Source: an uncultured Gemmatimonadaceae bacterium (lineage in GTDB: Bacteria; Gemmatimonadota; Gemmatimonadetes; Gemmatimonadales; Gemmatimonadaceae). Taken from it: 64,000 nt of DNA. Under the pieces are notes generated by a model. The model saw nothing but the letters and a program-made list of their open reading frames with translations. It did not search any database and had not been told where the DNA came from. Made by a program: the position numbers and the translations under genes. How positions within the stretch are numbered: the first letter of the stretch is position 1; each line of letters starts with the position of its first letter. Shown here one piece after another: positions 15,327-46,965 of the stretch. The DNA lies in contig CAVVTZ010000010.1 of assembly GCA_963751275.1 (NCBI GenBank), forward strand, positions 1 to 64,000, written 5' to 3'.

Positions 15327-15405
15327 AACGGCGCGGATTGGCCCTAGTACCGCTGGAACGGCGCGTCTGGCAACTGAGCGTATGGTACGCCTCGGCGCGC
15401 GTGGG
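15327..15405. repeat. Left arm of a 79-bp imperfect inverted repeat flanking the four-helix-bundle gene
   Basis: Ungapped match to the reverse complement of 15948-16026 at 65/79 positions, including perfect blocks AGTACCGCTGGAAC (14) and GCAACTGAGCGTATGGTA (18). Confidence 0.9.
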
Positions 15406-15488
15406 GAAACGATGCGGCGTGCAACGACTGGGTGGCGCTCACCAATCGCAAAGAGCTGACATTGTTTGCTCCTCGATCGGAGCGGGCG

Positions 15489-15914
15489 ATGACGTACGAT
15501 GAATGGGAAGCAGCGGTGCCGGAGCATATGCGCGCCAATGCGATGTGGGGGCTGCGGGTGTACCGCTCCGCGCTCTACGCGGGAGAGCTAGGGCGCACGG
15601 ATGCTGCGCTTCTCGCCCAGTTTGCGGAGTTCAACCACATCGCCGATCAGTTGGCTCGCGCGACCGCCTCGATCAGCGTGAACATCGCCGAGGGCTACAG
15701 CCGCTTCGGCCGCAAGGACCGCGGACGTTTCTACGAATACGCACTCGGCTCCGCGCGCGAAGCGCGCGACTGGTACTACAAGTCCACTGGCGCCCTCGGC
15801 TCCGCCACAACGGATGCGCGCATGTCTCTCCACACGACCCTCGTGCGCATCCTCACCGTCCTCGTCAAGAACGCGCGAGCGGAATCGCACCCTTCAGTAA
15901 TCATTTCCGGCTGA
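15489..15914 (+). CDS. Four helix bundle protein (23S rRNA IVP / Avd-like family)
   Basis: LRVY, DQLARATASISVNIAEGYSR, FYEYALGSARE family motifs; antisense to the surrounding trxA-rsmI run. Confidence 0.9.
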   Translation: MTYDEWEAAVPEHMRANAMWGLRVYRSALYAGELGRTDAALLAQFAEFNHIADQLARATASISVNIAEGYSRFGRKDRGRFYEYALGSAREARDWYYKSTGALGSATTDARMSLHTTLVRILTVLVKNARAESHPSVIISG

Positions 15915-15947
15915 CCTCCGGATACGGCAAAGGCGCGTGTGGTGAGT

Positions 15948-16026
15948 CCCACACGCGCCCCGGCATACCATACGCTCAGTTGCTAGTCACGCTGTTCCAG
16001 CGGTACTTGCCCCTACACGCGCCGTT
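15948..16026. repeat. Right arm of the 79-bp inverted repeat; ends in the trxA stop codon
   Basis: Reverse complement of 15327-15405; overlaps a separate perfect 11-bp hairpin at 15932-15959. Confidence 0.9.
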
Positions 16027-16354
16027 AAGCCGCCGTATGCTGCTGGATCTTCGCCTCATACGTCGCCTTCGGCATCGCGCCAACGACCATATCCACCACC
16101 TTCCCACCCTTGAAGAACAGAATGGTGGGAATCGACCGCACATTGTATCGAGTCGACGTCCGGATGTTCGCGTCCACGTCCATCTTCACCACTTTCGCCT
16201 TCCCCGCGTATTCCGTCGCCAGCTGGTCCACGATCGGACCCACCATGCGGCACGGCCCGCACCACGTCGCCCAGAAATCCACGAGCGTGAGTCCATCGTG
16301 CTTCTCGACCTGGGTCTCGAAATCCGCGTCCGTCACTGCTGCTGTGTTCGACAT
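16025..16354 (-). CDS. trxA: Thioredoxin
   Basis: VDFWATWCGPCRM, YNVRSIPT; 109 aa. Confidence 0.95.
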   Translation of the reverse strand: MSNTAAVTDADFETQVEKHDGLTLVDFWATWCGPCRMVGPIVDQLATEYAGKAKVVKMDVDANIRTSTRYNVRSIPTILFFKGGKVVDMVVGAMPKATYEAKIQQHTAA

Positions 16355-16439
16355 TTCTGCTCCCTCTCCGGCGCGGACTCGCTCGCCGCGCATTTGTCGT
16401 TAGATTGTCCTCGCCCCCCGTTCCCGGAGTGCGATCGTC

Positions 16440-16850
16440 GTGAATCCTGCATCCCGTCGCGGCGCCCGGCTCGCCCACATCGGCATCGCCGTTCGCTCGC
16501 TCGAGACGATCTTGCCGTTCTACCGCGACGTCCTCGGCCTCGAGGACGTGCCACTCGATGACGCCGACGGGGCGCACATCGCCGGCCTGTCCGCCGGCGA
16601 ACCCCTCGTCGAACTCCTCGAACCCGCCGAACCCGGTTCACCCATCGCGAAATTCATCGACAAGCGCGGACCGGGCATCCACCATCTCTGTTTCGCCGTC
16701 CCCGACCTCGACGCCGCGCTCGCGCGATGCCGTGCCGCGGGACTGCAGCTGATCGATCAGACCCCCCGCACCGGCGCCGAAGGCAAACGCATCGCCTTCC
16801 TGCACCCGTCATCCACGGCGGGCGTGCTGATCGAACTCACCGAATATTAA
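16440..16850 (+). CDS. mce: Methylmalonyl-CoA epimerase (VOC family)
   Basis: HIGIAV, VELLEP, RGPGIHHLCF, GAEGKRIAFLHP, GVLIEL. Confidence 0.85.
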   Translation: MNPASRRGARLAHIGIAVRSLETILPFYRDVLGLEDVPLDDADGAHIAGLSAGEPLVELLEPAEPGSPIAKFIDKRGPGIHHLCFAVPDLDAALARCRAAGLQLIDQTPRTGAEGKRIAFLHPSSTAGVLIELTEY

Positions 16851-16886
16851 TCGATCCGCGCCGCGATGAGTTCCCGGAACCCCCGC

Positions 16887-17357
16887 TCACTTCGTGCTGC
16901 TCTGCCCCGAGCACAGGTCCTTGAGCGGCTGCAGGTCGGTCTCCCCCACGAACCACCGGTTGTTCGGTCCGAGAAAGACCTTCGTGGTCGTCTGCCGCGT
17001 GAACGAACCCTTCGTGATGGACAGCGTCACGACGTGCACCTTGTCCGACGCCACCACATCGTTCACGATCTGGTAGCTGTCGTGCTTGAGGTAGCACTGC
17101 ATGATCATCGCGCGCTGCGAGAGCTGGTCCTTCGCGGGCAGATCCACCGCCGGACCCTTCTCGGAGCCCCAGATCAGCCCGAGCGCGTCCACGTCCTGGT
17201 CGTTGATCGCCTTCATGAACGCGCCGATGGCAAGGCTCGGTGTGGCCGCGCCGGGATCGCCGGCCGTCGTCGGCGGCGCGTTCGCCGGGTTGCCCGTGTA
17301 GGCGGGGGTCGAGCTGCAACCCGCCACGATCAGCGCCAAGAAGAGGATGCGGTTCAT
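16887..17357 (-). CDS. Hypothetical lipoprotein
   Basis: MNRILFLALIVAGC lipobox; codon usage fits this frame. Confidence 0.7.
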   Translation of the reverse strand: MNRILFLALIVAGCSSTPAYTGNPANAPPTTAGDPGAATPSLAIGAFMKAINDQDVDALGLIWGSEKGPAVDLPAKDQLSQRAMIMQCYLKHDSYQIVNDVVASDKVHVVTLSITKGSFTRQTTTKVFLGPNNRWFVGETDLQPLKDLCSGQSSTK

Positions 17358-17405
17358 TCGGCTCGCCCGGTTGGCAGACACGTGCGAAGCTAGCGGACGC
17401 CCATC

Positions 17406-18143
17406 ATGCGAGCAACCCTGCAGCGCCTCTACATCAACGTCGATCACGTCGCCACGATCCGGCAGGCGCGGCGCACCGACGAGCCCGATCCGGTGCTCGC
17501 CGCCGCGCTCTGTGAAGACGCCGGCGCCGATGGCATCACCGCGCACCTGCGCGAGGACCGCCGCCACATGCAGGACGACGACATCGAGCGCCTCGCGCGC
17601 GCCATCCGCACGAAGTTCAATCTCGAGATGGCGCTCACCGACGAGATGCTCGCCATCGCGGAGCGACTGCGCCCCTTCCAGGTGACGCTCGTCCCCGAGC
17701 GCCGCGAGGAAGTGACCACCGAGGGCGGGCTCGACGTCGCCCGGGATCCGGCGCGGCTGGCCGCCGGCCTCGCCCGCCTGAAACGCGCGGGGGTGCGTAC
17801 GAGTCTATTCATCGCCCCCGCGACGGATGCGGTGCGGCGCTCGCGCGACCTGGGGGCGGATGCGGTGGAATTCCATACCGGCGCCTATGCCCACCACCCG
17901 CACGATGGCGCCGCGCTCGCTGCTCTCGCGGGGGCGTCCACGCTCGGCGCCTCGCTCGGCCTGGCGGTGCACGCGGGACACGGGCTCACGGTGCGGAACG
18001 TCGCGCCGGTGGCCGCGATCCCCGAGCTGGAGGAATTGAACATCGGGCATTCGATCGTCAGCCGCGCCGTCTTCATCGGCATCGCGGCGGCCGTGCGCGA
18101 AATGCGTGCGGCGATGGACGCGGCGCGCGGCGTTTCTCGTTGA
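17406..18143 (+). CDS. pdxJ: Pyridoxine 5'-phosphate synthase
   Basis: NVDHVATIRQAR, HLREDRRH, LVPERREEVTTEGGL, HAGHGL, NIGHSIVSRA. Confidence 0.95.
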   Translation: MRATLQRLYINVDHVATIRQARRTDEPDPVLAAALCEDAGADGITAHLREDRRHMQDDDIERLARAIRTKFNLEMALTDEMLAIAERLRPFQVTLVPERREEVTTEGGLDVARDPARLAAGLARLKRAGVRTSLFIAPATDAVRRSRDLGADAVEFHTGAYAHHPHDGAALAALAGASTLGASLGLAVHAGHGLTVRNVAPVAAIPELEELNIGHSIVSRAVFIGIAAAVREMRAAMDAARGVSR

Positions 18144-18168
18144 CCGCCCGCCGGGCAGCGCATAGCTT
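18140..18168 (+). promoter_or_regulatory. Putative sigma70-type promoter
   Basis: TTGACC-N17-TAGCTT upstream of the Hpt-like gene. Confidence 0.55.
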
Positions 18169-18201
18169 CGCAGATACGCACCACCACCTGTCGGAGAGCG
18201 G

Positions 18202-19950
18202 ATGACGGCATCAGCCGGAGTGATGGACTTCTTCATCGTCGAAGCGAGCGAGTACATCGAGCGCCTCGACAATCTGCTCACATCCGCCGGTCCCGCCGGC
18301 CCGAACGCCGATTCCTTCGGCCGCTACGCGCGCGCGCTGCGCGGCAGCGCGACGATGTCCCGGCAGTACGGCATCGCCGACATCGCCGGCGCGCTGGAGC
18401 GCGTCGCGCGCGGGCTCCGCAATCGCGCGATGGGCTGGACCCCCGCGGCGAGCGCCGCCGTGGTCGCTGCGGTGGACGATCTCCGCATCCTCGTGCGCGC
18501 GGTGCGCGACTGGAGTCCAGCAGAGGACCGCCGCGCGCAGGCGCGCACCGCCGAGCTCGACCGCCTCGCCCCCGGCCCCGGCGGCGCGCCCTACGTGCCG
18601 CCTCCAGCCTCCGCGCCCACCGAGAACGAACCGCTCACCGGCGCGAACTTCCTGGCCGCCGAGACCGCCGACCTCGCCCGTTCGCTCGAGCAGCTCGTGG
18701 CCGCCCCCGAGGACACGAGCGTGATCGCGGCGCTCGCCGGCCGCGTGCGCGCGCTGCGCGGCGTGGCCGACCTGAAGGACATGCCGCCGCTGCCCGACGT
18801 GGTGGACGCCGTCGAGCGCGCGCTCAAGGGACTCGAGCTCGGCGCGCCGCACCCCACGCCGAGCGCCAAGCAGAAGTCGCTCTTCGCCACCGCCGCCGCC
18901 GTGCTCCGGCGCGCGTCGCGCGACATCGGCCAGCGCGGCCGCCCCGTGCCCGGCGCCCCCGAGGTGCTCGCGTTCCACAATGCGATGGCCGCGCTCCCCG
19001 ACGAAGGGGGCAGCGCCGACCGCATCGTGCCGATCGCGCAGCTCTTCTTCGACGACGCCGGCCCGCACATCGTGAGCGCCGCGAGCGCGCCGCCCACCAC
19101 GGCGGCCGAGCGCTTCCGCATGGAGGTCGTGAGCCTCGCCGAGCATCTGCGGCGCGTGGTGAGCGATGCGCGCGCGACGCGCGCCCCCGATGCGCGCGAT
19201 CACACCGCCCGCGAACTGCGCACCGCGCTGCGCGCGCTCGGCAGCGCCGCGAGCAGCTTCGGCGAGCGCCAGGTGGCGCGCTTCGCCGCCGAGTGGAGCG
19301 TGAAGGTCGCGACGCTGAACGACGCGGGCCTCACCGCACTCGATCGCGCCGCGACGATGCTCGCCGACCCTGAGACGCGCCCCGAGCAGTTGGCGCGCGC
19401 GCTCGAGCAGCTCGCCGCGCCGCGCAGCCCGCAGACCGCCGGCCGCTCGACGGTGGCGCTGCTCGCCGGCGACATCCCGCCCATGCGCACGCCGACGCCG
19501 CCGATGGCCGTGCGGCCGGTGGCGCCGCCGGCGGTGTCGGTCACGCCCTCGCCGCGCCGCTCGCTGGAGCGCCCGGTGGTCGAGCTGTCGCAGGCGCCGG
19601 CCGGATCGTTCCCGGCGTGGCCCGCCGCGACGCCGCCGGCCGCGCCGGCCGTGCCGGTAGTTCCCGAGCCGCGGCGCCCGGGCGCCGAGTCCACTGGCGA
19701 TTCGCTCCGCGCCTTCCTGCAGGAAGGGATCAGCGGTCTGCGCCGTCTCGAAGACCAGCCGCTGAGCCCGCCCGCGATCGTGCCCAACGAAGACGGCACG
19801 GTGCCGATCGACCAGTTGCTCTACCGCGGCCGCGCCGCGCTCGAACGCGCCGCCGAGCTGCGCCACGAATGGCAGCGCGCCGGCGCACCGCCCACGCCCG
19901 AAGCGGTCGCCGAACTGTTCGACCTGCTCGATCTCGCGCTCGTCGAGTAG
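18202..19950 (+). CDS. Protein with tandem degenerate Hpt-like domains
   Basis: DFFIVEASEYIERLD...ARALRGSATMS resembles CheA P1/Hpt; two further related repeats; Pro-rich linker. Confidence 0.7.
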   Translation: MTASAGVMDFFIVEASEYIERLDNLLTSAGPAGPNADSFGRYARALRGSATMSRQYGIADIAGALERVARGLRNRAMGWTPAASAAVVAAVDDLRILVRAVRDWSPAEDRRAQARTAELDRLAPGPGGAPYVPPPASAPTENEPLTGANFLAAETADLARSLEQLVAAPEDTSVIAALAGRVRALRGVADLKDMPPLPDVVDAVERALKGLELGAPHPTPSAKQKSLFATAAAVLRRASRDIGQRGRPVPGAPEVLAFHNAMAALPDEGGSADRIVPIAQLFFDDAGPHIVSAASAPPTTAAERFRMEVVSLAEHLRRVVSDARATRAPDARDHTARELRTALRALGSAASSFGERQVARFAAEWSVKVATLNDAGLTALDRAATMLADPETRPEQLARALEQLAAPRSPQTAGRSTVALLAGDIPPMRTPTPPMAVRPVAPPAVSVTPSPRRSLERPVVELSQAPAGSFPAWPAATPPAAPAVPVVPEPRRPGAESTGDSLRAFLQEGISGLRRLEDQPLSPPAIVPNEDGTVPIDQLLYRGRAALERAAELRHEWQRAGAPPTPEAVAELFDLLDLALVE

Positions 19951-19956
19951 GCGAAG

Positions 19957-20968
19957 GTGAGCGCGCGCTGGCGGAACCTGCTCGGCGTCGCGCTCAGCGT
20001 CGGGCTGCTCTGGTGGACGTTCCGCGGCCAGGATCCCGCGGTGATCTGGGGCAATCTCCGCGACGCCAACATTCTGGTACCTCCTGGCCGCGATGGTCAC
20101 CGGCACGCTGATCTTCCCGCTGCGCGCGATCCGGTGGCGCGTGATCCTCGACCCGATCGCGCCGGACATCCCGCTGTACGATCTCTGGCGCGCCACCGCG
20201 ATCGGCATGGCCGGCAACAACGTGCTGCCGGCGCGCGCCGGTGAATTCGCGCGCGCGTACGTGCTCTCGAAGGAGACCGAGCGCGTCACGTTCTCCGCCG
20301 CCTTCGCGTCGCTGGCCGTGGACCGCGTATTCGATGCCTTCGTGGTGCTGCTGCTCATGCTTGCGGCGATGATGTCGCCGTCGTTCCCCAACCTGCCCAT
20401 TGGCGGCCGGCACGTGAGCGACTACGTGATCGGCGGCGCGATCGTCGCGACCGCCGCGCTCGGCGCACTCTACCTCATCGTGTTCTTCCCGCAGTGGATC
20501 ATCACGATGTACGAGTGGCTCGTGCGCAAGGTGGCGCCGAAGTTCGAGGACCAGGGGCGCCAGCTGCTGCTGTCGTTCGCCTCGGGGCTCGGTGTGCTCC
20601 GGCATCCATCGCGCTTCTTCCGCGTGCTGCTCTGGACGATCGCGCACTGGCTGCTCAACGGCGTCGCCTTCCTGTGCGCCTTCAAGGCCGTGGGGATCAC
20701 GGCGCCGTACAGCGCCGCGCTGCTGCTGCAGGGGTTGATCGCGATCGGCGTCGCGGTGCCGAGCGCGCCGGGATTCTTCGGCATCTTCGAGAAGATCGGC
20801 CAGGTGGGCCTCGGCATCTACGGCGTGGACAAGTCGCTCGCGACGAGCTGGGCGATCGGGTTCCATCTGCTCACGTTCATCCCGATCACGCTCATCGGCA
20901 TCTACTACTTCACGAAACTCGGGTTCCATCTCCGCGATTTGAAGCGCGCGGAGACCGACGCGGCATGA
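19957..20968 (+). CDS. Lysylphosphatidylglycerol synthase TM / UPF0104 flippase-like membrane protein (frameshift near 20075)
   Basis: LRAIRWRVIL, NNVLPARAGEFARA, VDRVFD, PSAPGFFG; N-terminus in the adjacent frame. Confidence 0.85.
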
Positions 20969-21852
20969 GCGCGCGCGCCGCGCGCGTCGCGGCGCAGGCG
21001 AAGATCAACCTGGGCCTGCGCGTGCTGAGTCGCGAAACGTCGGGCTACCACGGGATCGAGACGGTCTTCCAGCGGCTGGCGCTCGCCGACGACGTGAGGG
21101 TGCGGATCACCGACGGCCCGCGCACACTCGACACGCGGGGCGCCGACGTCGGCCCCACCGAGAAGAACCTCGCCTGGCGCGCGGCGCTCGCGATGCGCGC
21201 GGCCACGGGCTGGCCCGCCGGCTTCGCGATCACGATCGAGAAGCGCATCCCCGTGGGCGCGGGACTCGGCGGCGGCAGCGCCGACGCCGGCGCGGTGCTC
21301 CGCGCGCTCAACGCGCTGGCGCCGCATCCCGTGAGCGAACTGGAACTGATGCGCATCGCCGCGCCATTGGGCGCCGATGTCCCGTTCCTCACCGGCACGG
21401 CGTCACTCGCGATGGCGTGGGGGCGCGGCGAGCGGATGCTGTCGCTGCCGCCGCTGCCGGAGCGCAGTGTGGCGCTCGTGCAGCCGGGCTTCGCGGTGAG
21501 TACCGCCGAGGCCTACGCGTGGCTCGACGCGTCGCGCGGCGGCTACGCCCCGCAGCCGCAGATGATGGGCGCCGAGCGGTTCGCGAGCTGGGAGGCCGTG
21601 GCGCCGCTCACCGGGAATGATTTCGAGCCGGTGATCGCCGAACACCACGCCGGGCTGCCCGGGATCGCCGAGGCGCTGCACCGCGCCGGCGCGTCGATCG
21701 CGCGCATGACCGGCTCCGGCTCGACCATGTACGGGATCTTCGCGCTCCCGCCGAACGCCGCGGCATTGGCGAAATCGGTGCCGGGCACGGTGATCGTCAC
21801 GAGCACCGTGATGAGCGTGCAACCCGTGGAGCTGGTGGACGTTCGCGCTTGA
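20965..21852 (+). CDS. ispE: 4-diphosphocytidyl-2-C-methyl-D-erythritol kinase
   Basis: AKINLGL, KRIPVGAGLGGGSADA, LGADVPF, NDFE, MTGSGS. Confidence 0.95.
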   Translation: MSARAARVAAQAKINLGLRVLSRETSGYHGIETVFQRLALADDVRVRITDGPRTLDTRGADVGPTEKNLAWRAALAMRAATGWPAGFAITIEKRIPVGAGLGGGSADAGAVLRALNALAPHPVSELELMRIAAPLGADVPFLTGTASLAMAWGRGERMLSLPPLPERSVALVQPGFAVSTAEAYAWLDASRGGYAPQPQMMGAERFASWEAVAPLTGNDFEPVIAEHHAGLPGIAEALHRAGASIARMTGSGSTMYGIFALPPNAAALAKSVPGTVIVTSTVMSVQPVELVDVRA

Positions 21853-21877
21853 GTGCCTGTGCCGGCGGCACTAACTT
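21849..21877 (+). promoter_or_regulatory. Putative promoter for tRNA-Gln
   Basis: TTGAGT-N17-TAACTT ending 11 nt before the tRNA. Confidence 0.55.
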
Positions 21878-21888
21878 CCGCCTGCTGA

Positions 21889-21959
21889 TGCCCCCTCGTC
21901 CAATGGCAGGACTCCGGACTTTGGATCCGGTAATGGTGGTTCGAATCCACCGGGGGCAA
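21889..21959 (+). tRNA. tRNA-Gln (anticodon TTG), CCA not encoded
   Basis: Acceptor stem TGCCCCC/GGGGGCA, anticodon arm CCGGA-CTTTGGA-TCCGG, T-arm GGTGG-TTCGAAT-CCACC; usual ispE-tRNA-Gln-prs context. Confidence 0.97.
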
Positions 21960-21987
21960 CTACTACTGACTGCGCGTCTGGTCGTTC

Positions 21988-22079
21988 GCGTGTAGTCCTC
22001 GGCATGACAACAAATTGTGTGATGCGCGAGAGGCCCTCAGAGTCGTACAGAATTCGTTGTCATGCCTCGGACCATACGC
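21988..22079. repeat. About 90-nt imperfect palindrome between tRNA-Gln and prs
   Basis: Perfect GGCATGACAAC/GTTGTCATGCC core extended by GCGTGTAGTCC/GGACCATACGC. Confidence 0.75.
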
Positions 22080-22100
22080 CATACGCTGTCGTTTGCAGTG

Positions 22101-22129
22101 TTGCGTAACCCATTCAGCCGGACTAACTT
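22101..22129 (+). promoter_or_regulatory. Putative promoter for prs
   Basis: TTGCGT-N17-TAACTT upstream of ATG 22145. Confidence 0.5.
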
Positions 22130-22144
22130 TGATGGCTGTGAAAC

Positions 22145-23099
22145 ATGGATGAGCTAAGCGTCCCGCGACGGGGCTTCAAGCTCTTGTCGGGCACGGCGAA
22201 CCGGGGGCTCGCGGAGGAGATCAGCCGCACCCTCGGCGTCGAACTCGGCAAGGTCACGCTGAGCCGGTTCGCCGACGGCGAGATCTTCGTCCGCATCGAC
22301 GAGAACGTGCGCGGGCACGATGTGTTCATCGTGCAGCCGACCAATCCGCCGGCCGAGAACATCATGGAGCTCCTGCTCATGATCGACGCGGCGCGACGGG
22401 CCTCGGCGGCACGCATCACCTGCGTGATGCCGTACTATGGATATTCGCGGCAGGACCGGAAGGACCAGCCGCGGGTGGCGATCGGCGCGAAGCTCGTCGC
22501 CAACTTGATCGTGAAGGCCGGGGCGGACCGGGTGCTGGGGATCGATTTCCACCAGCACGCGCTGCAGGGGTTCTTCGACATTCCCGTCGACCACCTCTAC
22601 GCGGCGCCGGTGCTCACCGCGCATTACCGGAAGAAGGCAGTTGAAGGACCTCGTGGTCGTCGCGCCGGATGTCGGCTCGGCGAAGATGGCGAGGGGATTC
22701 GCGAAGAGGCTCAACGGCACCTTCGCGATCATCGACAAACGGCGGCCCGCGGCGAACGTCGCCGAGGTGCTGAACGTCGTCGGTGAAGTGGAAGGTCGGG
22801 ATTGTCTCATTCCCGATGACATGATCGACACCGCCGGCACGGTATCCGAGGCGGCCCGCGCGCTCAAAGCGCTCGGCGCCAACGATATCTACGTCTGCGC
22901 CACGCACGCGATGCTCTCCGGCCCAGCCGTCGAGCGTCTCTCCGCGGCGCCGATCGCCGAGGTGACCGTGACCGATACGATCGCGTTGCCGCCGTCCAAA
23001 CGATTCGAGAAGCTGCGCATCCTCTCGATCGGTGAACTGCTGGCGAAAGCGATCCGCTATACGCACAGCGACGAATCCGTCAGTTCGCTGTTCGAGTGA
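22145..23099 (+). CDS. prs: Ribose-phosphate pyrophosphokinase (frameshift near 22636)
   Basis: FADGEIFVRIDENVRG, PYYGYSRQDRK in the first frame; VVAPDVG, DDMIDTAGT in the second. Confidence 0.93.
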
Positions 23100-23144
23100 C
23101 CGCCGCTCCACCACCGTTTCCGCAACCGCAAGCGAGATCGAACC

Positions 23145-23832: not shown

Positions 23833-23878
23833 CGCGACGGGGCGGAATCTCGCCCCGCCCCGCTTCGCCTTCTTTCGC

Positions 23879-24511: not shown

Positions 24512-25613
24512 ATGCTTAGACTCGCGATCGTCGGTCTGCCGAACGTCGGAAAGTCCACGCTGTTCAATGCGCTCACGAGCGCCAAGGCGGAGGCAGCGAA
24601 CTATCCGTTCTGCACCGTGGAGCCGAACGTCGGCATCGTCGAAGTGCCGGACCCGCGGCTCGCGAAGCTGGCCGAGGTGGTGCAACCCAAGCGCACCGTG
24701 CCCGCGGCGGTGGAGTTCGTGGACATCGCGGGGCTGGTGAAAGGCGCGAGCGCGGGCGAGGGTCTGGGCAACAAGTTCCTGGCGAATATCCGTGAGACCG
24801 ACGCGATCGTGCATGTGGTGCGTTGCTTCGACGATCCGGACGTGACGCACGTGATGGGCAGCGTGGATCCCGTGCGCGACCGCGAGGTGATCGAGCTGGA
24901 GCTGGCGCTGGCCGACCTCGCGGCGGTGGAGAAGCGGCTGGACCGCACGCGGCGCGCCGCGAAATCGAATGGAGAAGGAGGCGCTCGCCGAGCTGCCGGC
25001 GCTCGAGGCCGCGTACGCCGCACTCTCCGCGGGGCGCGGGCTCTGGGAAGTGAAGCTCACCGATGAACAGCGCGCGCTGCTCAAGCCGCTGGCGCTGCTC
25101 ACCGCGAAGCCCGTCCTGTACGCCGCGAACGTGACCGACCACGAGCTGACGGGTGACGAGGGCCCGCACTTGAAGGCGCTGCGCGCGGCGGTGGCGAAGA
25201 GCGGCGAGCATGCGCAGATCGTGCCGTTCTCCGCGAAGATCGAAGCCGAACTCGCCGAACTGCCGCCGGCGGATCGCGAGGATTTTCTCGCATCGCTCGG
25301 GCTGACGTCGGCGGGGTTGGACCGGCTGATCCGCGCCGGCTACGAATTGCTCGGCCTGCAGACCTACTTCACCGCCGGCGAGCAGGAAGTGCGCGCCTGG
25401 ACCATCCACAAAGGCGACCGAGCGCCCGCGGCGGCCGGCGTGATCCACACGGATTTCGAGCATGGGTTCATCCGCGCGGAGACGGTGGCGTACCCGGATT
25501 TCATTTCCATGGGCGGATGGAAGGGCGCAAAGGAGAAGGGGGCGGTTCGCAGCGAAGGGAAAGAGTACGTGGTGGCCGATGGAGACGTCCTGCTGTTCCG
25601 GTTCAACGTGTAA
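24512..25613 (+). CDS. ychF: Redox-regulated ATPase YchF (frameshift near 24967)
   Basis: [57 protein letters not shown]. Confidence 0.95.
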
Positions 25614-25625: not shown

Positions 25626-25796
25626 GAGTAGCACCCCGGACTACGTACTTGGTCCCCCGAACTCCGTTGCTAGCAGGTGAGGCGTAGTCACGGCATGGGC
25701 GTATTTGGCAACACCAAGTACGCCCGAGCTGTGACCACGCCTTAGTTGCCAGAAACGGAGTTCGGGGGACCAATGACGGAGTTCGGGGTGCCACTC
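25626..25796. repeat. 171-nt imperfect palindrome between ychF and rpsF
   Basis: 83-nt arms match ungapped at 68/83, 5-nt loop; perfect 20-bp block TTGGTCCCCCGAACTCCGTT; 21-nt tandem duplication in the arms. Confidence 0.92.
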
Positions 25797-38994: not shown

Positions 38995-38995
38995 C

Positions 38996-40049
38996 ATGCT
39001 GGTCGTGATGAAAACCGGGGCGAAGCCGGCGGAGATCGAAGCCGTCGTTCGCGTGATCGAGGAGATGGGCTACGAGGCGCGCCCGATGCCGGGCGCGCAA
39101 CGCACCGCGGTGGGACTCGTCGGCAACGACGGCCGCGTGGACGCGTCGCGCATCGAAGCGCTGTCGGGGGTGGCGCAGGTCATCCACGTCACGCAGCCCT
39201 ACAAGCAGGTGTCGCGCGAGTGGAAGGCCGAGAGCACGATCGTCACGATCGGCGGCACGGTGCACGTGGGCGGCACGGAAGTGCCGATCATCGCCGGCCC
39301 GTGCTCGGTGGAGAGCGAGGAGCAGATCGTGACCGCGGCGCGCGATGGTGCGCGCGGCGGGCGCGGCGGCGCTGCGCGGCGGTGCGTTCAAGCCGCGGAG
39401 CTCGCCATACTCATTCCAGGGACTCGGCAAGAAGGGGCTGGAATTGCTGGCGCTGGCGCGGCAGGAGACGGGCCTCGCCATCGTGACCGAAGCGATGGAC
39501 GAAGAGGGCGCGGAGCTGGTGGCCGAGTACGCGGACTGCATCCAGATCGGCGCGCGGAACATGCAGAACTATTCGCTGCTCAAGTTCTGCGGCACGTTGA
39601 ACAAGCCCGTGCTGCTGAAGCGCGGCCTTGCGGCCACGATCCAGGAGCTGCTGCTGAGCGCGGAGTACGTGCTGGCGAGCGGGAATCCGAATGTGATCCT
39701 GTGCGAGCGCGGCGTGCGCACCTTCGACAACGTGGCGCGCAATATGTTCGACCTCACGGCGATCCCGATCGTGCAGCAGCTGTCGCACCTGCCGATCATC
39801 GCCGATCCGAGCCATGGCACGGGGATCCGCGACAAGGTGATCCCGATGGCGCGCGCGGCGGTCGCCGCGGGGGCGAACGGCGTGATGGTGGAGGTGCATC
39901 CGAATCCCGAGCGGGCGCTGTCGGACGGCGCGCAGTCGCTCTATCCGGAGCAGTTCGCGCAGCTGGTGGGCGAGCTGCGGTTGATCGCCGCGGCGATCGG
40001 GCGGACGATCACGCCGGCGCCGGCGCTCGCGGCGGCGGGCGCCCGATGA
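38996..40049 (+). CDS. aroF: 3-deoxy-7-phosphoheptulonate (DAHP) synthase, type I-beta with N-terminal regulatory domain (frameshift near 39340)
   Basis: [55 protein letters not shown]. Confidence 0.92.
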
Positions 40050-40711
40050 ACCGCGCCGTCGCCGGCGCGGCATTCGCGCTGGCGGCGCTCGTGGGGGCGA
40101 GTGGCGCGCAGTCGGCCACGGCCACGCTCGAGCGCGCGGCCGCCGTCTATGCGAAGATGCGAACGGCCAAAGTGAGCTTCACGCAAACGGTGGACAACCC
40201 GCTCACCGGCCACGGCGTCGATTCCAAGGGCGAGATGCTGCAGCGGCTGCCGGGACGCTACGCGGTGAGCTTCACGCAGCCGGCCGGCGACCGCATCGTG
40301 TCCGACGGCAAGGCGGTGTGGATCTACCTGCCGAGCACGAATCCCGGCCAGGTGATCCGCATGACCGTGGGCGAGGGGGGCGCGAAGATCCCCGATTTCA
40401 CGACGTGGCTGGTGGATTCACCCACCCAGCGTTTCGTCATCACCGACGGCGGCACGGCGGTGATCGGCGGCCATGCGACGCACATCGTGGGCCTCACGCC
40501 GCGCGGCCGCAACGCGCCCTTCGCCTTCGCGAGACTCTGGATCGACGACGCCGACGCGATCGTGCGCCAGTTCGAGACCAAGGATGCGAACGGCAGCATG
40601 CGCCGCGTGCGGATCGATGCGATCCAGATGAATGTGCCGGTGAGCGACGGGAATTTCATCTTCACGCCGCCGGCGGGCGTGAAGGTGTACGACCAAGGCG
40701 CGGCGAACTAG
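40046..40711 (+). CDS. lolA: Outer membrane lipoprotein carrier LolA family protein
   Basis: Signal peptide; [30 protein letters not shown]. Confidence 0.8.
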
Positions 40712-40717
40712 ACACTT

Positions 40718-40885
40718 CTGACGGCGAGAGTGACGACGCTGACGGCGAGGGTGACGACGCTGACGGCGCCTGTGATCGTTGACGTGTGGCAACGGCCGCG
40801 GCGTGCGTAGTTGCTACACGTCAACGATCACAGGCGCCCCCAGCGGTGTCACCCTCGCCGTCAGCGGTGTTACTCTCGCCGTCAG
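40718..40885. repeat. 168-nt imperfect palindrome with 21-nt tandem units between convergent genes
   Basis: 76-nt arms match ungapped at 68/76, 16-nt loop; unit CTGACGGCGAG(A/G)GTGACGACG repeated on the left arm and mirrored on the right. Confidence 0.93.
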
Positions 40886-40888
40886 CCG

Positions 40889-41737
40889 TCAGCTCGTGCC
40901 CCTGAGCACCGCCGTGATCTCCGCGAGCTTGGCGGGATCGGTGCCCGCCTTCCTCGCGAGGTCCACCGCCGCGAGCGACAGCGCGCGATAGAGCGCGAGC
41001 AGCTCCGGCGTCGCCGCGAGCGCGGCCAAATGCCGCCGCACGGTCTCGGCATCGCCACGCACGATCGGCCCGGTGAGCGCCTGCGCGCTCGGCTTCGCGC
41101 GCACGTTGTCCGCGCCAGCGGAGAAGAGCGGCATGAGCGCGGCGCGCGCATCGTCCGCGCCGATCCCGATCTGCGCGAAGAGCGCTTCGCCGCTCGCCAT
41201 CAGCAGCGCCGGGAAGTTCGACGCGAACACCGCGGCCGCGTGGTACCGCACCTTCTCGCCCGCGGGGATCTCGAGCGTCCGCGATCCCAGCGCCGCCGCG
41301 AGCGACTGCGCCGCTTCTCGCGCGCGCGCGTCGCCATCCAGGCCGAACCACGCTCTCCCGATGCTCGTCGCGGCGCGCGCCGGATCCGTGAACGCGAGCA
41401 GCGGGTGCATCGTGCCGCATGGGTGGCCCTGCGCGCGCAACGCGGCGAGCGCCAGGGGATCGGCGCTGCCGCTCGCGTGCAGCACCACCGCGCCCGGCGC
41501 CAGCGACGCGCTCACGAGCGAGGTCAGCACCTCTTCCAGCTGCGGATCGCGCACGGTGACGAGCACCACGGTGGCGCGCGCGATCGAGACGGGCAGCGGT
41601 CCCGCGGTGATCGCGTCGGGCCCACTCTGCGGCTTCCGGCCGTGCAGTCCGACCACATCCACCCCCGCCGCCTTCCACGCGCGCGCGAGCGCGGTGCCGA
41701 CGCGGCCCGCGCCCAGCACGAACACGCGCTCACTCAC
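40889..41737 (-). CDS. Rossmann-like / DUF2520 oxidoreductase
   Basis: VLGAGRVG, HASGS, MHPL, YHAAAVFASNF, LTGPIVRGD..TVRRHL. Confidence 0.88.
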   Translation of the reverse strand: MSERVFVLGAGRVGTALARAWKAAGVDVVGLHGRKPQSGPDAITAGPLPVSIARATVVLVTVRDPQLEEVLTSLVSASLAPGAVVLHASGSADPLALAALRAQGHPCGTMHPLLAFTDPARAATSIGRAWFGLDGDARAREAAQSLAAALGSRTLEIPAGEKVRYHAAAVFASNFPALLMASGEALFAQIGIGADDARAALMPLFSAGADNVRAKPSAQALTGPIVRGDAETVRRHLAALAATPELLALYRALSLAAVDLARKAGTDPAKLAEITAVLRGTS

Positions 41738-43350
41738 GGCGCCGCCGGAACGTCTTCGTGTCTCGCCGCCCGCTGCTCGGCCGCGCGCGTGAGCAGGTCC
41801 TTCTCGCTCTGCGCGCCCGCGGCGAGCGCGAGCGCCTGCGTCACCACGCGGTCGTCGTCGAGCCGCTTGCGCCACGCCGCCTCGGCGCCGAGCGCATCGC
41901 GCGCGATCTCATCGCCCAGCATGCGGGAGATGGCCGCGGCCGCGGCATCGTATTGCGCGCGGCTCAGGTGCACCCCCTTCGCCTGCGCGCGCCGGAACAG
42001 ATCGTCGCGCATCGCCGGCGTGATCGTGATCGCCGTGCCGCGCACCGCGCCGTCGCCGCGCGCCTGCGTCGCAACGTCCACCATCGCGTCGCGGAGCTTG
42101 GGCAGGTCGCGCCCCAGTTCGCGGATCAGCGCGAGCGTGCCGTCCGCGGAATCCTGCGGCGTCACGATGATGTCGGGGGTGATCCCGCCGCCGCCGTACA
42201 CCGTGCGTCCGGCGTCGGTGCGATACGGCTTCCGCTGCGAGAGCGGGCGCTCGCGCAGCGTGTCGGTGTCCGTGGCGTCGCCCGGCTCAGGGTGCGGCCG
42301 CTGGATGCTGCGCCCGCTCGGCGTGAACCAGAGCGCCGTCGTGAGCCGCAGCGCGTGCTGCTCGCCCTCGAGATCGAAGATCGACTGCGCGCTCCCCTTC
42401 CCGTACGTGGTCGAGCCCATCACCACCGCGCGGTCGTGGTCCTGCAGCGCCCCGGCGACGATCTCCGACGCGCTGGCGCTCCCCTCGTCCACCAGCACGA
42501 TCACCAGCAGGCCGGGCCAGAGCTGCGGATGCTCATCGCTGATCGTGACCGTGCTCGCCGGCGTGCGGCCGCGCAGCGACACCACCGCCTGCCCCTCGTC
42601 CAGGAACTCATCGCTCACGCCGACGCCCTGCACGAGCAGCCCGCCGGGGTCGCCCCGCAGGTCGAGCAGGATCGTGCGCGCGCCCGCAGAGCGCAGCCGC
42701 TCCACCGCGCGGCGCAATTCCACCGCGCTCGAGTCCGCGAACACCGCGAGCTGCACGTAGCCCGCGTCGCCCGTGAGCATCATCGCGTGGCGCACCGGGT
42801 TCAGATGGATCGCCGCGCGCGTGACGACGATCGGGATGTGTCCGGCGACGCCCGGCCGCTCCACGAGCAGCGTGACCTTGGTGCCCGGCGCGCCGCGTAG
42901 TCCGGCGCGCGCCGAGTCGGCGAGCCGCGCGCTCACCACCTTTCCATCGATCTCGAGGATCCGGTCGCCGGCGCGCAAGCCCGCGATCTCCGCGGGCGAG
43001 CCCGCCAGCGGCGCGATCACGCTCAGCCAGCCATCACGCACATCGATCTGCACGCCGAGCCCATCGTACTGGCCCGCGGTGGTCTCGGTCAGCCGCTTGA
43101 AGAGGCGCTCATCGAGGAGCGACGAGTTGGGATCGTGCAGCTCCGCGACCATCCCGGTGGCCGCCTTGGCGTAGAGGTCCGCCGGATCGAGGGAGTCCAC
43201 GTAGTTGTCCTCGACGTGCGCGAGCACCTGGTCGAAGAGCGTCGCGCGCGCGACACCGCCGCCGGCCAGCGAACCGCGCAGCAGCTGGCCGCCGGCGAAC
43301 ATCACGACGGCGAAGAGCGCCAAGGCCGTGAGGGTGCGGCCGCGGGTCAT
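41734..43350 (-). CDS. S41 family C-terminal processing peptidase (PDZ)
   Basis: LHDPNS, GLGVQI PDZ, DLRGDPGG, SASASEIVAGALQDHDR, TYGKGSAQ. Confidence 0.92.
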   Translation of the reverse strand: MTRGRTLTALALFAVVMFAGGQLLRGSLAGGGVARATLFDQVLAHVEDNYVDSLDPADLYAKAATGMVAELHDPNSSLLDERLFKRLTETTAGQYDGLGVQIDVRDGWLSVIAPLAGSPAEIAGLRAGDRILEIDGKVVSARLADSARAGLRGAPGTKVTLLVERPGVAGHIPIVVTRAAIHLNPVRHAMMLTGDAGYVQLAVFADSSAVELRRAVERLRSAGARTILLDLRGDPGGLLVQGVGVSDEFLDEGQAVVSLRGRTPASTVTISDEHPQLWPGLLVIVLVDEGSASASEIVAGALQDHDRAVVMGSTTYGKGSAQSIFDLEGEQHALRLTTALWFTPSGRSIQRPHPEPGDATDTDTLRERPLSQRKPYRTDAGRTVYGGGGITPDIIVTPQDSADGTLALIRELGRDLPKLRDAMVDVATQARGDGAVRGTAITITPAMRDDLFRRAQAKGVHLSRAQYDAAAAAISRMLGDEIARDALGAEAAWRKRLDDDRVVTQALALAAGAQSEKDLLTRAAEQRAARHEDVPAAP

Positions 43351-44018
43351 TGGGCGGCCTCGAACGATGAGGGCCAGCGCGCCGAGAGCGCCGCGAGCAC
43401 GCGGTCGAACACGGCACTCTCGTCGCCCGAGCCGTCGATCGCGACGATCGGGCCGCACTCCGGATGCGCGGCCTGCCACTCGGCGCCGGCGAAGAGCGTG
43501 AACGCCGCCGCCACGCGCTCGTGGAAGTCGGCGCCGGCCCGCTCGATCTTGTCGGCGTGGCCGCGCGCCGTGGCGCGCGCGTCGCGCACCGCGGCGTCGA
43601 GCGTGAACACCAGCGTCACATCGGGCACGAGGCCGCCCGTGGCGAGCGCATTCGCGGTGCGCACCGGCTCGAACGGCAGGCCGCGGCCGTGCACCTGGTA
43701 CGCGTATGTCGAGAGGAAGAAGCGGTCCGCGAGCACGAACTCGCCGCGGTCGAGCGCGGGCCGGATCACGCGTTCCACCAGCTCCGCGCGCGACGCCATG
43801 AACAGCATCGCCTCGGCGCGCGGCGTGAGATCGGCGTGCTTGGGATCCAGGAGCCAGCGGCGGATGTCGTCGCCGAGCGCCGTGCCGCCGGGCTCGCGCA
43901 CCGCGGTGTGGGCCACGCGGTTGCGCGCGAGCCACGCGGTGAGGCGCGCGAGTTGGGTGGTCTTGCCCGCCCCCTCCGGCGCCTCGAACACGATGAGCCG
44001 CCCGGGCGTGTTGCTCAC
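43347..44018 (-). CDS. tmk: Thymidylate kinase
   Basis: FEAPEGAGKTTQ, REPGGT, ADRFFLSTYAYQ. Confidence 0.95.
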   Translation of the reverse strand: MSNTPGRLIVFEAPEGAGKTTQLARLTAWLARNRVAHTAVREPGGTALGDDIRRWLLDPKHADLTPRAEAMLFMASRAELVERVIRPALDRGEFVLADRFFLSTYAYQVHGRGLPFEPVRTANALATGGLVPDVTLVFTLDAAVRDARATARGHADKIERAGADFHERVAAAFTLFAGAEWQAAHPECGPIVAIDGSGDESAVFDRVLAALSARWPSSFEAAQ

Positions 44019-44368
44019 CCCAGCGTGATGATCGGGCTCGCCGCGCCGCGTCGGATCCCGTCCAGGATCCACTCGTTCACGCGCGCCATGAGCTTGTCGA
44101 AGTTCTCCTGCGCCACCATCACGGCCTGGTACACGGGGCTGCCCTGCACCTTGAGGAGCAGCTCGTCCAGCTGCTGCTCCATCGCCTCGGTGGGCTGCTC
44201 GCCGCGCTCGATCATCGCCTGCGCGTCCCGGCGGATCTGCTCCATCTGCTTCAAGACGGCCACGGCATCGGTGTTCGCCGTGAGCGCTTCGTTCGCGCGC
44301 TTCACCGCCTGGTATTCGCTGCTCTGGCCGATCAGCCGGCCGATCTCCTTCGCACGGTCCTCGAGCAC
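44015..44368 (-). CDS. YlbF/YmcA (Com_YlbF) family protein
   Basis: AKEIGRLIGQSSEYQ...AQENFDKLMARVNEWI helical pattern. Confidence 0.75.
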   Translation of the reverse strand: MLEDRAKEIGRLIGQSSEYQAVKRANEALTANTDAVAVLKQMEQIRRDAQAMIERGEQPTEAMEQQLDELLLKVQGSPVYQAVMVAQENFDKLMARVNEWILDGIRRGAASPIITLG

Positions 44369-44369
44369 G

Positions 44370-45255
44370 TCACTCCTCTCCTCGTCTCGCCAGCAGGAAG
44401 CGTTCCCGTCCCGCGAGATCGAGTCTCACGGACACGTCGCGGTAATGGCCGTCGGCGAGGGCGAGCTCCGCCGCCAGCGATGCGCGCCGGCTGTCGACTT
44501 CGAGCGCCAGCAGGCCGCCCGCCTCGAGCACCGTGTGCGCCCCGTGAATGATACACGCGATGTCGCGCATTCCGGAGTCCTCGGCGAAGAGCGCCACCGG
44601 CGGCTCCCAGTCGCGCACCGACGCGGGCAGCGCGCCCGCTTCGCCGCTGCGCAATGTAGGGCGGATTGGACGCCACCGCGCGCGCGCGCACGCCGGCGAG
44701 CGGCGCGAGCCATTCACCCGCGCGGAATTCCACCGGGCAATTCAACATCGGCGCGCAGGCCGCGGCGTTCGCGCGGGCCACGGCGAGCGCGCCATTGCTA
44801 ATGTCGGTCGCGATCACGCGCGCGAACCGGCCCTCCTGCGCCAGCGCGAGCGCGATCGCCCCGCTGCCGGTGCCGAGGTCCACCGCCGTGCCGCCGGATT
44901 CGTCCGTCATCTCATCCAGTACGCGTTGGACCAGTTCCTCGGTTTCGACGCGAGGGATCAGCACGCGCTCATCGACGGCGAGCGTGAGGTGCCGGAAGGC
45001 GGCGCGGCCCACCGCATAGGCGAAGGGCGCACCGTTCGCCCGGCGCGCGGCGGCGGCGCGCATGGCGGCGGCGTGGTCGGCGCTCACCGACTCGCCCGCG
45101 TGCGACGCGGCCCAGAATCGCGGCGCATCGAGCAGCGCAGCCACGATGTCCGCGGCCTCGCGCTTCGCCTCGGGAATGCGCGCGGCCGTCAGGACGGCGG
45201 CGAGTTCCTCCACCAGTGGCGATACCGCGGCGCCGCTCGCGTCAGTCGGCGCCAC
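44370..45255 (-). CDS. prmC: Release factor glutamine methyltransferase (frameshift near 44655)
   Basis: VLIPRVETEEL, DLGTGSGAI, SNPPYI; EPPVALF and DLAGRER in the second frame. Confidence 0.92.
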
Positions 45256-46312
45256 CGAGCTTCTCCTCGACCTCGGCCATCGCGAGCGCCTCGATGAGCG
45301 GATCGAGCTCGCCCTCGAGCGTGCGCGACAACTCGTGGATCGTGAAATTGATCCGGTGGTCGGTGACGCGGTTCTGCGGAAAGTTGTAGGTGCGGATCTT
45401 GGCCGAGCGGTCGCCGGTGCCCACCTGCGTCTTCCGCATGCGCGAGCGCTCGGCCTCCTGCTCCGCGAGCCGCGCGTCGAGCAGGCGCGCGCGCAGCACT
45501 TCCATGGCCTTGAGCTTGTTCTGCAGCTGCGACTTCTGGTCCTGCTGGCTGACCACGAGGCCGGTGGGGATGTGCGTGATGCGCACCGCGCTGTCGGTGG
45601 TGTTCACGCTCTGGCCGCCGGGGCCGGACGAGCGGAAGACATCGATGCGAGGTCCTTCTGCTCGATCTTGATGTCGACCTCCTCGGCCTCGGGCAGCACG
45701 GCGACCGTGGCGGCCGAGGTGTGGATGCGCCCCTGCGCCTCGGTGGCGGGCACGCGCTGCACGCGGTGCACGCCGCTCTCGCGGCGGAGCCGGCCGAACG
45801 CGGCGTCGCCCTTCGACCTTGAAGATCGCTTCCTTGATCCCGCCCAGCGCGCCCTCGGAGCGTTGCAGCAACTCGACCTTCCAGCCCTGCCGCTCGGCGT
45901 AGCGCGTGTACATGCGCACGAGGTCGGCGGCGAAGAGTGCGGCTTCGTCGCCGCCGGTGCCGGCGCGGATCTCGAAGATGGCGGGGCGGTCGTCGAGCGG
46001 ATCGCGCGGCACAAGGAGCGGCGGCAGCTTCGCTTCGATCTCGGCGATCTCCGCGGAGAGGCGGTCGTTCTCGGCGCGCGCTTCGGCGGCCATGTCGGCG
46101 TCGGCGGCGGTGAGCAGCTCCGCCAGCTGCGCGCGCTCGCTCTCGGCGCGCGCGAGGCGGCCGGCGAGTTCGGCTATGGGGGTGAGGCGCCGGTGCTCCC
46201 GGCCGAGTTCGGCGATCCGGCCGGAGTCGCGGGGCCCGACCGGATTCGCCAGCTCGCGCTCGATCTCATCGAAGCGCGCGAGCGCCTGCGCGAGGAGATC
46301 GCGGAGGCTCAG
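45242..46312 (-). CDS. prfA: Peptide chain release factor 1 (apparent CTG start; two compensating frameshifts at about 45812 and 45650)
   Basis: [25 protein letters not shown] (PxT), [23 protein letters not shown]. Confidence 0.93.
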
Positions 46313-46512
46313 CTCTCCCTACCGTACTTCTGACGGAAGCGTTCGACGCGACCCGCGGTGTCCATCAGCTTCTGCTTGCCGGTGTAGAACGGGTGGCAAT
46401 TCGAGCAGACGTCGGTATGGATCTCGCCCTGGGTCGAGCGGGTGGTGAACGTGTTGCCACAAGCGCACTTGACGACGGCGGTGGCGTAGGTGGGATGGAT
46501 TTCCTTCTTCAC
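46309..46512 (-). CDS. rpmE: 50S ribosomal protein L31 (zinc-binding type)
   Basis: [30 protein letters not shown] start. Confidence 0.96.
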
Positions 46513-46545
46513 TTTGGGTTCCTCGAGGATTTCGGGTAGCCGCGT

Positions 46546-46575
46546 AATATACCGACTTTCTAGGCCCGAATTCAA
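46546..46575 (-). promoter_or_regulatory. Putative rpmE-prfA operon promoter
   Basis: Minus strand TTGAAT-N18-TATATT. Confidence 0.55.
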
Positions 46576-46965
46576 CCCCGAAGGCCGTGAGGCGTGAGGC
46601 GTGCGGCGAACGGATCGAACAGCGTGAGGCGCGACCCGAACGCCGTGAGGCGCACCCGAACGCCGTGAGGCGCGACCCGAACGCCGTGAGGCGCGACCCG
46701 AACGCCGTGAGGCGTGAGGCGTGCGGCGAAGGGATTGTACAGCGTGAGGCGCGCCCCGCTCACCGTGAGGCGTGAGGCGAGGAGTCACTCCGTCGCACGC
46801 CACTCGCCTCACGGGGTTCGGGGTGCGCCTCACGCCTTATGCAGGAGTTCCTCGCACGCCTCACGCCTCACGGGGTTCGGGGTGCGCCTCACGCCTTATA
46901 AGCAGGAGTTCCGTCGCACGCCTCACGCCTCACGGGGTTCGGGGTGCGCCTCACGGCCTTCGGGT
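46576..46965. repeat. About 390-bp palindromic array of GTGAGGC/GCCTCAC heptamers
   Basis: Left half: GTGAGGC heptamers and tandem GAACGCCGTGAGGCGCGACCC 21-mers. Right half: three ~57-nt units rich in GCCTCAC. Ends pair (CCCGAAGGCCGTGAGGCG / CGCCTCACGGCCTTCGGG). Confidence 0.93.

Follow-up and report, generated by a model that had tools for sequence, protein, structure and literature searches.

What are the long palindromes that lie between the core genes of this stretch of Gemmatimonadaceae DNA, and how could they have spread? The window (the whole stretch analysed, 64,000 nucleotides (nt) of contig CAVVTZ010000010.1, assembly GCA_963751275.1) contains five of them, one of which encloses a gene for a four-helix-bundle protein, and the first-pass annotation, made from the letters alone, had taken all five for a single structure-defined repeat system linked to that gene. 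We find instead five separate sequence families, tied to different paralogues of the gene. These families replace one another at the same intergenic sites in related genomes, where the usual mobility enzymes were not found. The comparisons involve the host genome assembly (G000; 83% complete, 3.1 Mb, 68% GC) and five congeners (G001–G005). An unpublished genome (G012) contributes one row to the family-wide tallies, and no claim depends on it alone.

Hairpin families and their gene-bearing sisters

All five inverted repeats were recovered where they had been described, with the arm lengths and identities reported for three of them. The 15.3 kb element comprises a left arm of family F2 (15327..15405, + strand), with an orthologous arm in G002, G004 and G005, a four-helix-bundle gene of 141 amino acids (15489..15914, + strand; TIGR02436/PF05635) and a right F2 arm (15948..16026, − strand) that overlaps the trxA stop codon; its 79-nt arms are 82% matched. 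Listed originally among the palindromes that may be cargo-less, it is the gene-bearing cassette itself, and the other four are empty. These are an F10 hairpin (21988..22079; arms 21988–22019/22048–22079, 32 nt, 81% matched), an F1 hairpin directly behind the ychF stop (25626..25796; arms 25626–25708/25714–25796, 83 nt, 82%), an F6 hairpin built of 21-nt units that occupies the gap between two convergent stop codons (40718..40885; arms 40718–40793/40810–40885, 76 nt, 89%), and an F3 array of nested inverted repeats with 7/21-nt units in the divergent rpmE gap (46575..46968). RNA-folding z-scores were −17.5 for the 25.7 kb element and −3.8 for the 22.0 kb element.

That the palindromes are fold-back assembly artefacts, one of the outcomes that would have undone the original proposal, is excluded for practical purposes, and we attach a negligible probability to it. 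Indeed, the arms are imperfect, fall into families and respect gene boundaries, orthologous hairpins recur in independent genomes, and the 15.3 kb cassette, like the 22.0 kb hairpin, is crossed by public contigs from unrelated runs.

A scan of the whole 3.1 Mb assembly identified 310 inverted-repeat clusters of at least 45 bits; in two order-5 Markov controls (439 kb each), no inverted repeat reached 35 bits. Clustering of the arms produced 15 families of 3–59 elements plus four singletons, the largest being F0; the families present in the window account for 41 (F2), 8 (F10), 48 (F1), 18 (F6) and 28 (F3) strong elements. When family profiles were used for the search, 331 empty pairs (42 of them F2) and 12 pairs with an interior of at least 250 nt were found, and arms made up 1.9% of the genome. 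A single family for all five window elements was rejected: no BLAST match connects any pair of them. F1 and F3 are nevertheless clearly homologous (consensus similarity z 13–16), and the 15.3, 25.7, 40.7 and 46.6 kb elements are related degenerate heptamer arrays. Families linked to helix-bundle genes show a periodicity of 7/14/21 nt (nearly lost in F2), and those linked to GxxExxY genes one of 9/18/27 nt.

The short words on which the single-system view had been built are all present where they were reported; their meaning differs from case to case. T[AG]GCAAC is about 29-fold denser within elements (90 matches in 70 kb) than outside them (138 in 3.05 Mb), and F1, F2 and F6 have it as a common module; similarly, TCTGGCAACT has 12 matches within elements and one outside. 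By contrast, CCATACGC, put forward as a link between the 16.0 and 22.0 kb elements, is an F2 word (14 of its 15 in-element matches) that is missing from the orthologous 22.0 kb element of G002, so that the link is probably due to chance. GTGAGGCG is present as described, yet it also occurs at four further places in the window outside the five elements. The 22.0 kb hairpin has another connection: its inner stem has GGCATGACAAC in common with F7, a sister copy of which encloses a four-helix-bundle gene.

The gene of the 15.3 kb cassette scores 56.1 bits against TIGR02436 (cut-off 24) and 50.4 bits against PF05635 (cut-off 33.8), and its closest named relatives come from uncultured Gemmatimonadaceae. 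The predicted fold of its product (predicted local distance difference test score 91.7) matches Xcc0516 (2GSC, which holds five chains) and BT_0352 (2RLD): chains of these two structures make up the top ten Foldseek matches, with template modelling (TM) scores of 0.66–0.70 by query and a best E value of 0.005. The match to Avd is weaker (TM 0.58–0.71, E=0.71). The gene is under purifying selection, with a ratio of nonsynonymous to synonymous divergence (dN/dS) of about 0.16 relative to its orthologue L052, as are the genes of this kind that were compared (0.07–0.18, four pairs, rough method).

All six TIGR02436 genes of G000 lie between inverted arms, which belong to F7, F1, F2, F3, F5 and an F14-like word. 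F3 arms also flank a further copy, the seventh, which is frameshifted (C2:57.3 kb). Gene-bearing sisters of the empty window hairpins thus exist for F1 (C9:573.4 kb) and F3 (C9:570.9 kb and the frameshifted copy), and those of F6 are found in G002 and G004. The F6 case is the most telling one: at C11:13.7 kb, G000 has an empty F6 hairpin at the very site where G002 and G004 carry F6 arms with a gene, and this orthologous gene-bearing/empty pair directly supports the notion of cargo-less relatives. That notion therefore stands for the 25.7, 40.7 and 46.6 kb elements, and for the 22.0 kb element only indirectly, via the F7 stem. The more specific link to the window's own gene applies to the 15.3 kb family only, the other families being paired with different paralogues.

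The association holds well beyond the host genome. Arms of at least 30 bits flank 32 of 34 helix-bundle loci in the six genus genomes (34 of 43 matches were used, leaving out two contig-end loci and seven without locus sequence, four of which later also showed arms), and across the host family arms were found at 24 of 29 best matches vs 3 of 250 control genes. F1, F2, F3 and F6 arms enclose genes of a single clade (support 100/100). Among relatives of this clade from Chloroflexota, Poribacteria, Salinibacter-like and other genomes, heptamer arms in inverted orientation flank the gene at 44 of 63 loci. The heptamer unit contains CGT at 51 of 64 loci of these relatives vs 2 of 21 other TIGR02436 loci (p=1e-8, a value overstated by the non-independence of kin). 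A distant clade member from an Oscillochloris record (L187) is flanked by CGTGAGG arrays, the same word as that of F3 at 46.6 kb. The clade of the window protein was not found in viral contigs. Helix-bundle genes occupy few fixed loci, and the arm word at a given locus may differ between congeners.

Not every enclosed gene belongs to this family. Two of the three GxxExxY genes of G000 are enclosed by F0 arms and the third adjoins an F4 element, and one F4 copy lies directly upstream of a GxxExxY gene; 4 of the 12 long interiors contain neither a helix-bundle nor a GxxExxY gene.

Turnover at fixed gaps and divergence of gene ends

Orthologous gaps, which the earlier proposal had suggested checking, are informative: at the four empty sites of the window, a congener may have the same family or a different one, a hybrid, or no element. 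The 22.0 kb site has the same family in G002, a hybrid in G005, another heptamer hairpin in G001 and none in G003 and G004; the 25.7 kb site has other families in G002, G003 and G005 and none in G001; the 40.7 kb site has F7 in G002, G004 and G005; the 46.6 kb site has an F1-type element in G002 and G004 and yet another family in G005. The gene-bearing 15.3 kb cassette has orthologues in G002, G004 and G005; G001 lacks it.

We also compared gaps irrespective of family between G000 and G002 (85.6% identical), using about 1.2 Mb of the latter. Among 562 orthologous gaps, 497 had no hairpin, 24 had homologous stems, 17 had unrelated stems and 24 had a hairpin on one side only. Unrelated stems thus occupy 17 of the 41 doubly occupied gaps, where 1.5 would be expected, or about 4.4 when eligibility is restricted to the 211 larger gaps. 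Counting by family over 199 gaps, in part with hand-made patterns, agrees with this (21 same, 19 different, 10 one side only), and family swaps are also seen between genomes 93% identical. Replacement can be partial: at C9:331.2 kb the arms on both sides changed family and the central hairpin was retained, and of nine mixed loci in G000, five combine left and right arms from different families. A left-arm variant has its mirror image in the right arm in 1304 cases, where 589 would be expected. Finally, one new insertion at a stop/start overlap, recognised by comparison with three congeners 85% identical, shows no target duplication, although this is a single clean case and short duplications may have decayed.

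The elements are strongly positioned relative to genes. With a simple gene caller made for this analysis, they occupy 104 of 228 convergent, 164 of 968 co-directional and 48 of 334 divergent gaps longer than 60 nt; they begin a median of 1–8 nt behind a stop, and only 6 of the 331 empty pairs have their midpoint inside a called gene. An outer motif, AAC(T/G)(G/A)C, which often overlaps the stop, lies at most 24 nt from it in 102 of 261 element-followed genes vs 116 of 2311 others.

Genes that end at an element diverge unusually fast near that end. Fourfold-site divergence in consecutive intervals from the end, over about 180 nt, is 0.45, 0.41, 0.38, 0.37, 0.36 and 0.30, compared with 0.21–0.31 at control gene ends (79 vs 153 genes, p=7e-8), meaning that silent sites near the 3' end diverge roughly 1.5–2 times faster. 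Once changes were polarised (53 genes), C>A, C>G, C>T, G>A and G>T were found to be raised 1.5–2.8-fold, and G>C was not; C is depleted at fourfold sites of the last 25 codons (pooled p=2e-6). This halo is compatible with mutagenic re-synthesis, with mRNA-level selection against C, or with the two combined.

The system had been described as linked to no transposase, and the searches agree: neither PF01797 (Y1_Tnp, IS200/RAYT) nor the reverse transcriptase domain PF00078 (RVT_1) was found in any of the six genus genomes (63–89% complete). IS110 and DUF559 were not found in G000, and the translations of the long interiors revealed no recognised transposase. There is one rve gene in G000 and none in G002, G003 and G005, which also show turnover. 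RNase III, the enzyme that excises rRNA intervening sequences, was likewise not found: PF00636 matched in 0 of 6 genus genomes and PF14622 in 0 of 61 host-family genomes (57 of them at least 90% complete), with a positive control that matched in 8 of 14; no paper on a missing RNase III in the host family was found. Since transposase and RNase III are both missing from the searches, neither textbook mechanism applies. Lack of SbcD was considered as a possible reason for the persistence of palindromes; an SbcD-like match, below cut-off, is present in all six genomes.

How the hairpins could spread

What kind of process would generate separate families, gene-bearing sisters for four of the five window elements and replacement at fixed gaps? 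We propose, and give about an even chance to, the following scheme: the hairpins spread by copying over existing hairpins behind stop codons, guided by a predicted word-specific ring protein. By analogy with its solved relatives, each paralogue would form a pentamer and would bind the single-stranded or hairpin form of its cognate heptamer arm. The resident hairpin would be nicked or broken, and host repair would re-synthesise one arm with another element as template; the second arm would then be corrected by fold-back copying, completing the palindrome. Such repair would raise the substitution rate in the adjacent gene end. Sites behind stops would be retained because hairpins there are tolerated, or are of use to the transcript as 3' structures.

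Several observations weigh against this scheme. The helix-bundle protein has no known catalytic site, and the coupling between word and clade would also be expected from co-inheritance of gene and arms. Consensus similarity is weak among F1, F2 and F6 (z 1.6–3.3: about 3 for F1–F2, 1.6–1.9 for the comparisons with F6). All six genus genomes are incomplete; no gene enclosed by F10 arms was found in G000 or at 19 loci of G002, G004 and G005, and F6, F8, F12 and F13 enclose no gene in the G000 assembly, yet are abundant. At one site G002 has F14 arms, even though F13 arms enclose its own gene at the F13/F14 locus. Only in 58 of 273 elements does an arm match its partner better than it matches any foreign arm; taken with the mirrored variants, this means that local symmetrisation and copying between loci both operate. 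Conserved occupancy with unrelated stems could reflect repeated independent insertion at preferred sites. As for the halo, divergence is not raised in genes whose start follows an element (60 vs 196 genes, p=0.93): total divergence is flat at these 5' ends, where C/T differences (0.066 vs 0.033 unpolarised) are not significant once polarised. Changes towards C are not raised either, and with the flat 5' ends this makes selection on the mRNA fit as well as repair; a G–C skew test for the strand-symmetric halo that resection would leave was not significant.

Another explanation is that the hairpins are host 3'-end structures (terminators or stabilisers) kept by selection, with ectopic gene conversion altering their sequence and the four-helix-bundle protein acting as an autoregulated binding regulator. 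The gap occupancy, its conservation across orthologous gaps and the close proximity to stops all agree with this, as do the depletion of C in the last codons, the purifying selection on genes at fixed loci, and, in co-directional gaps but in neither convergent nor divergent ones, an excess of G-U over A-C pairs on the transcribed strand (284 vs 226, p=0.012). We nevertheless hold it to be rather unlikely: a terminator requires no 80-nt arms, no 15 families and no 7-nt phasing, there are congeners without an element at these sites, one insertion went into a stop/start overlap, 48 elements lie in divergent gaps, and the G-U bias is small. Movement of all families by a nuclease acting in trans is a still less probable reading. 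GxxExxY proteins, which we take to be nucleases, or an unrecognised enzyme would act REPIN-style through the outer motif, the four-helix-bundle gene being a passenger or accessory. The presence of GxxExxY genes in all six genus genomes, two within F0 arms and one beside F4, and the concentration of the outer motif near stops speak for this possibility. It is difficult to reconcile with the pairing of GxxExxY with 9-nt and of helix-bundle genes with 7-nt families, with eleven host-family genomes at least 90% complete that have TIGR02436 and no GxxExxY match, and with further GxxExxY loci in the genus, only one of seven of which is enclosed by arms; moreover, a passenger role would leave the clade–word coupling unexplained.

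One could also imagine that each empty hairpin is the relic of a separate gene-bearing insertion that lost its gene, empty forms never being copied. One clean loss or gain of a gene between arms at an orthologous site, and the broken genes at C2:57.3 kb and C9:285.2 kb, are what such a history would produce. It is nonetheless improbable, given 331 empty pairs against 12 with a long interior. In addition, just 3 of 115 loops match the cassette region, and they do so via arm sequence with no gene remnants; loops within a family resemble each other, and the genes remain at few fixed loci.

A reading in broader terms is also possible, to which we give somewhat less than an even chance: these would be replicators that dispense with transposase and reverse transcriptase, competing hairpin families, each with a word-specific four-helix-bundle ring protein, that displace each other at the 3' ends of genes by overwriting and introduce mutations into the coding sequence next to them. 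The intervening sequences of rRNA and the unexplained heptamer repeats of bacteria would then be special cases, and the Avd protein of diversity-generating retroelements a domesticated relative.

Relation to known systems and further observations

The comparisons that follow draw on extracts of the papers cited. An analogy with the repetitive extragenic palindrome (REP) doublets called REPINs and their RAYT partners had been drawn loosely, and it holds for the way in which genes stay at fixed loci as the repeats around them change. REPINs behave as doublet units (PMC3116915), their partner genes are single-copy and vertically kept (PMC5581495), orthologous genes can be flanked by different repeat classes ('orthogroups', 'orthoswitch'; PMC3686654), and TIRtrons have been described (PMC3733652). 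Here too there are hundreds of extragenic hairpin doublets in several families and a low-copy gene at a stable locus, flanked by its cognate repeat. However, there is no Y1/HUH transposase, the partner is a four-helix-bundle or GxxExxY gene inside the stem, the arms are degenerate 7- or 9-mer arrays of 30–120 nt with the outer AAC(T/G)(G/A)C motif and no GTAG/CGTC tag, and elements replace one another at fixed gaps, whereas the extracts report REP doublets as randomly distributed over extragenic space. The window system thus behaves like REPIN-RAYT but, because the transposase is missing, is not a member of it.

In architecture, the elements are like the 23S rRNA intervening sequences of Coxiella (S23p open reading frame (ORF), terminal stem and heptamers; PMC4990558) and Leptospira, which share the PF05635/TIGR02436 ORF, the terminal inverted repeats forming a stem and the heptamers beside the ORF. 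The present elements differ in lying outside rRNA, beside protein or tRNA genes, in having hundreds of gene-less copies, and in a host family in which the excising RNase III was not found. Intergenic repeats of Xanthomonas (inverted pairs of the GGGAATC heptamer; PMC4692102) and of Geobacter metallireducens (class 1–3 sites; PMC2700814) resemble them in their 7–8-nt tandem units, inverted pairing and position close behind stops, and family F8 uses the word GGGA(C/A)TC. For those repeats, G-quadruplexes or regulator sites are proposed and no partner gene is named in the extracts; arms here are longer, degenerate, gene-linked and replaced at their sites. Avd has a related four-helix fold and offers a structural precedent for the proposed binding: it is a pentamer, the five protomers of which contact an RNA stem-loop with bases flipped into the crevices between protomers (bioRxiv 10.1101/2023.10.23.563531; PDB 4DWL). 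Unlike in diversity-generating retroelements, no reverse transcriptase was found in the six genomes, and the local excess of substitutions is not adenine-specific. Miniature inverted-repeat transposable elements likewise include gene-less, internally deleted forms of a larger element with inverted ends, but the hairpins have no cognate transposase, their ends are ragged, the whole element is a stem and no duplication was seen at the one clean insertion, where a short one may have decayed.

In the open-access literature, to which the search was confined (subscription papers being outside its scope), no paper ties TIGR02436 or GxxExxY genes to palindrome families; the extracts of PMC5524665, PMC8700078 and PMC4679880 contain no gene–repeat link. 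New here are the one-family-per-paralogue pattern, the clade–word coupling, the orthologous site that is gene-bearing in two congeners and empty in G000, the replacement counts, the halo of divergence at gene ends and the failure to find RNase III. They provide a very common, uncharacterised protein family with a role that can be tested, and intergenic heptamer repeats, long unexplained, with an origin, and they reveal REPIN-like population behaviour without a transposase and the architecture of an intervening sequence in a lineage where RNase III was not found. Several paralogue/word pairs within one genus offer a ready comparison of binding cross-specificity.

The surroundings of the window elements were also annotated, gene names being interpretations of Pfam matches. 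The 15.3 kb element sits between an rsmI-like gene and trxA, and the 40.7 kb element separates convergent lolA and DUF2520 genes. The 22.0 kb hairpin lies between prs and a tRNA gene just 5' of it (21889..21959, + strand; RF00005; anticodon TTG, Gln, read from the sequence), the only known RNA family that Rfam recognised in the window. A consensus scan of the cassette found neither a promoter nor an intrinsic terminator, nor did it call one at 15932..15959, where the right arm has a small GC-rich hairpin at its inner end that is shared with the trxA-side arm of G002, G004 and G005. Note that prs, ychF, the DAHP-synthase/lolA region and a release factor gene look split or fused across frames (22145–23099, 24573–25613, 38996–40711 and 45242–46093); these frame breaks in housekeeping genes are probably assembly frameshifts.

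Two further families deserve mention. F4 elements (e.g. C12:51953–52176 and C7:729924–730123) have 9-mer arms around an 88–110-nt spacer of unrelated sequence, in which a conserved central TTGTTGTTAACAACAA-type palindrome lies at a near-fixed distance from both arms (23 loops). F9 elements (e.g. C9:120477–120831 and C7:978918–979255) are GC-rich nested hairpins of 250–350 nt with related loops and no 7- or 9-nt period; no partner gene was found for them in the analysis, and they may be a separate element type.

At gene ends, TAA is the stop codon of 85 of 261 genes preceding an element vs 253 of 2311 elsewhere. Arms overlap the final codons and provide the stop of the upstream gene at C11:13.7, C14:60.3, C9:645.6 and C9:396.4 kb, and an inserted arm appears to provide a new in-frame start at C9:463.4 kb. 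Frequent extension of the stem into the upstream ORF was considered and rejected, having been seen in only 8 of 140 cases. F6 may have originated from the end of the dprA-like gene at C11:13.7 kb, which is a candidate only.

Ordinary-looking genes lie between inverted arms of one family at C7:838143–838861, C9:276950–277891, C14:95451–96183 and C1:46231–47005, and such genes could be movable. Lastly, 3.6–4 kb of extra genes separate the cassette's own right arm from a second F2 arm beside trxA in G002, G004 and G005 (L061, L063 and L065). The right arm of the window (15914–16026 region) matches this second, trxA-side arm, and a 2.15 kb gene of the extra stretch is found without arms at C11:340730–342880 in G000, which suggests that arms may serve as recombination points.

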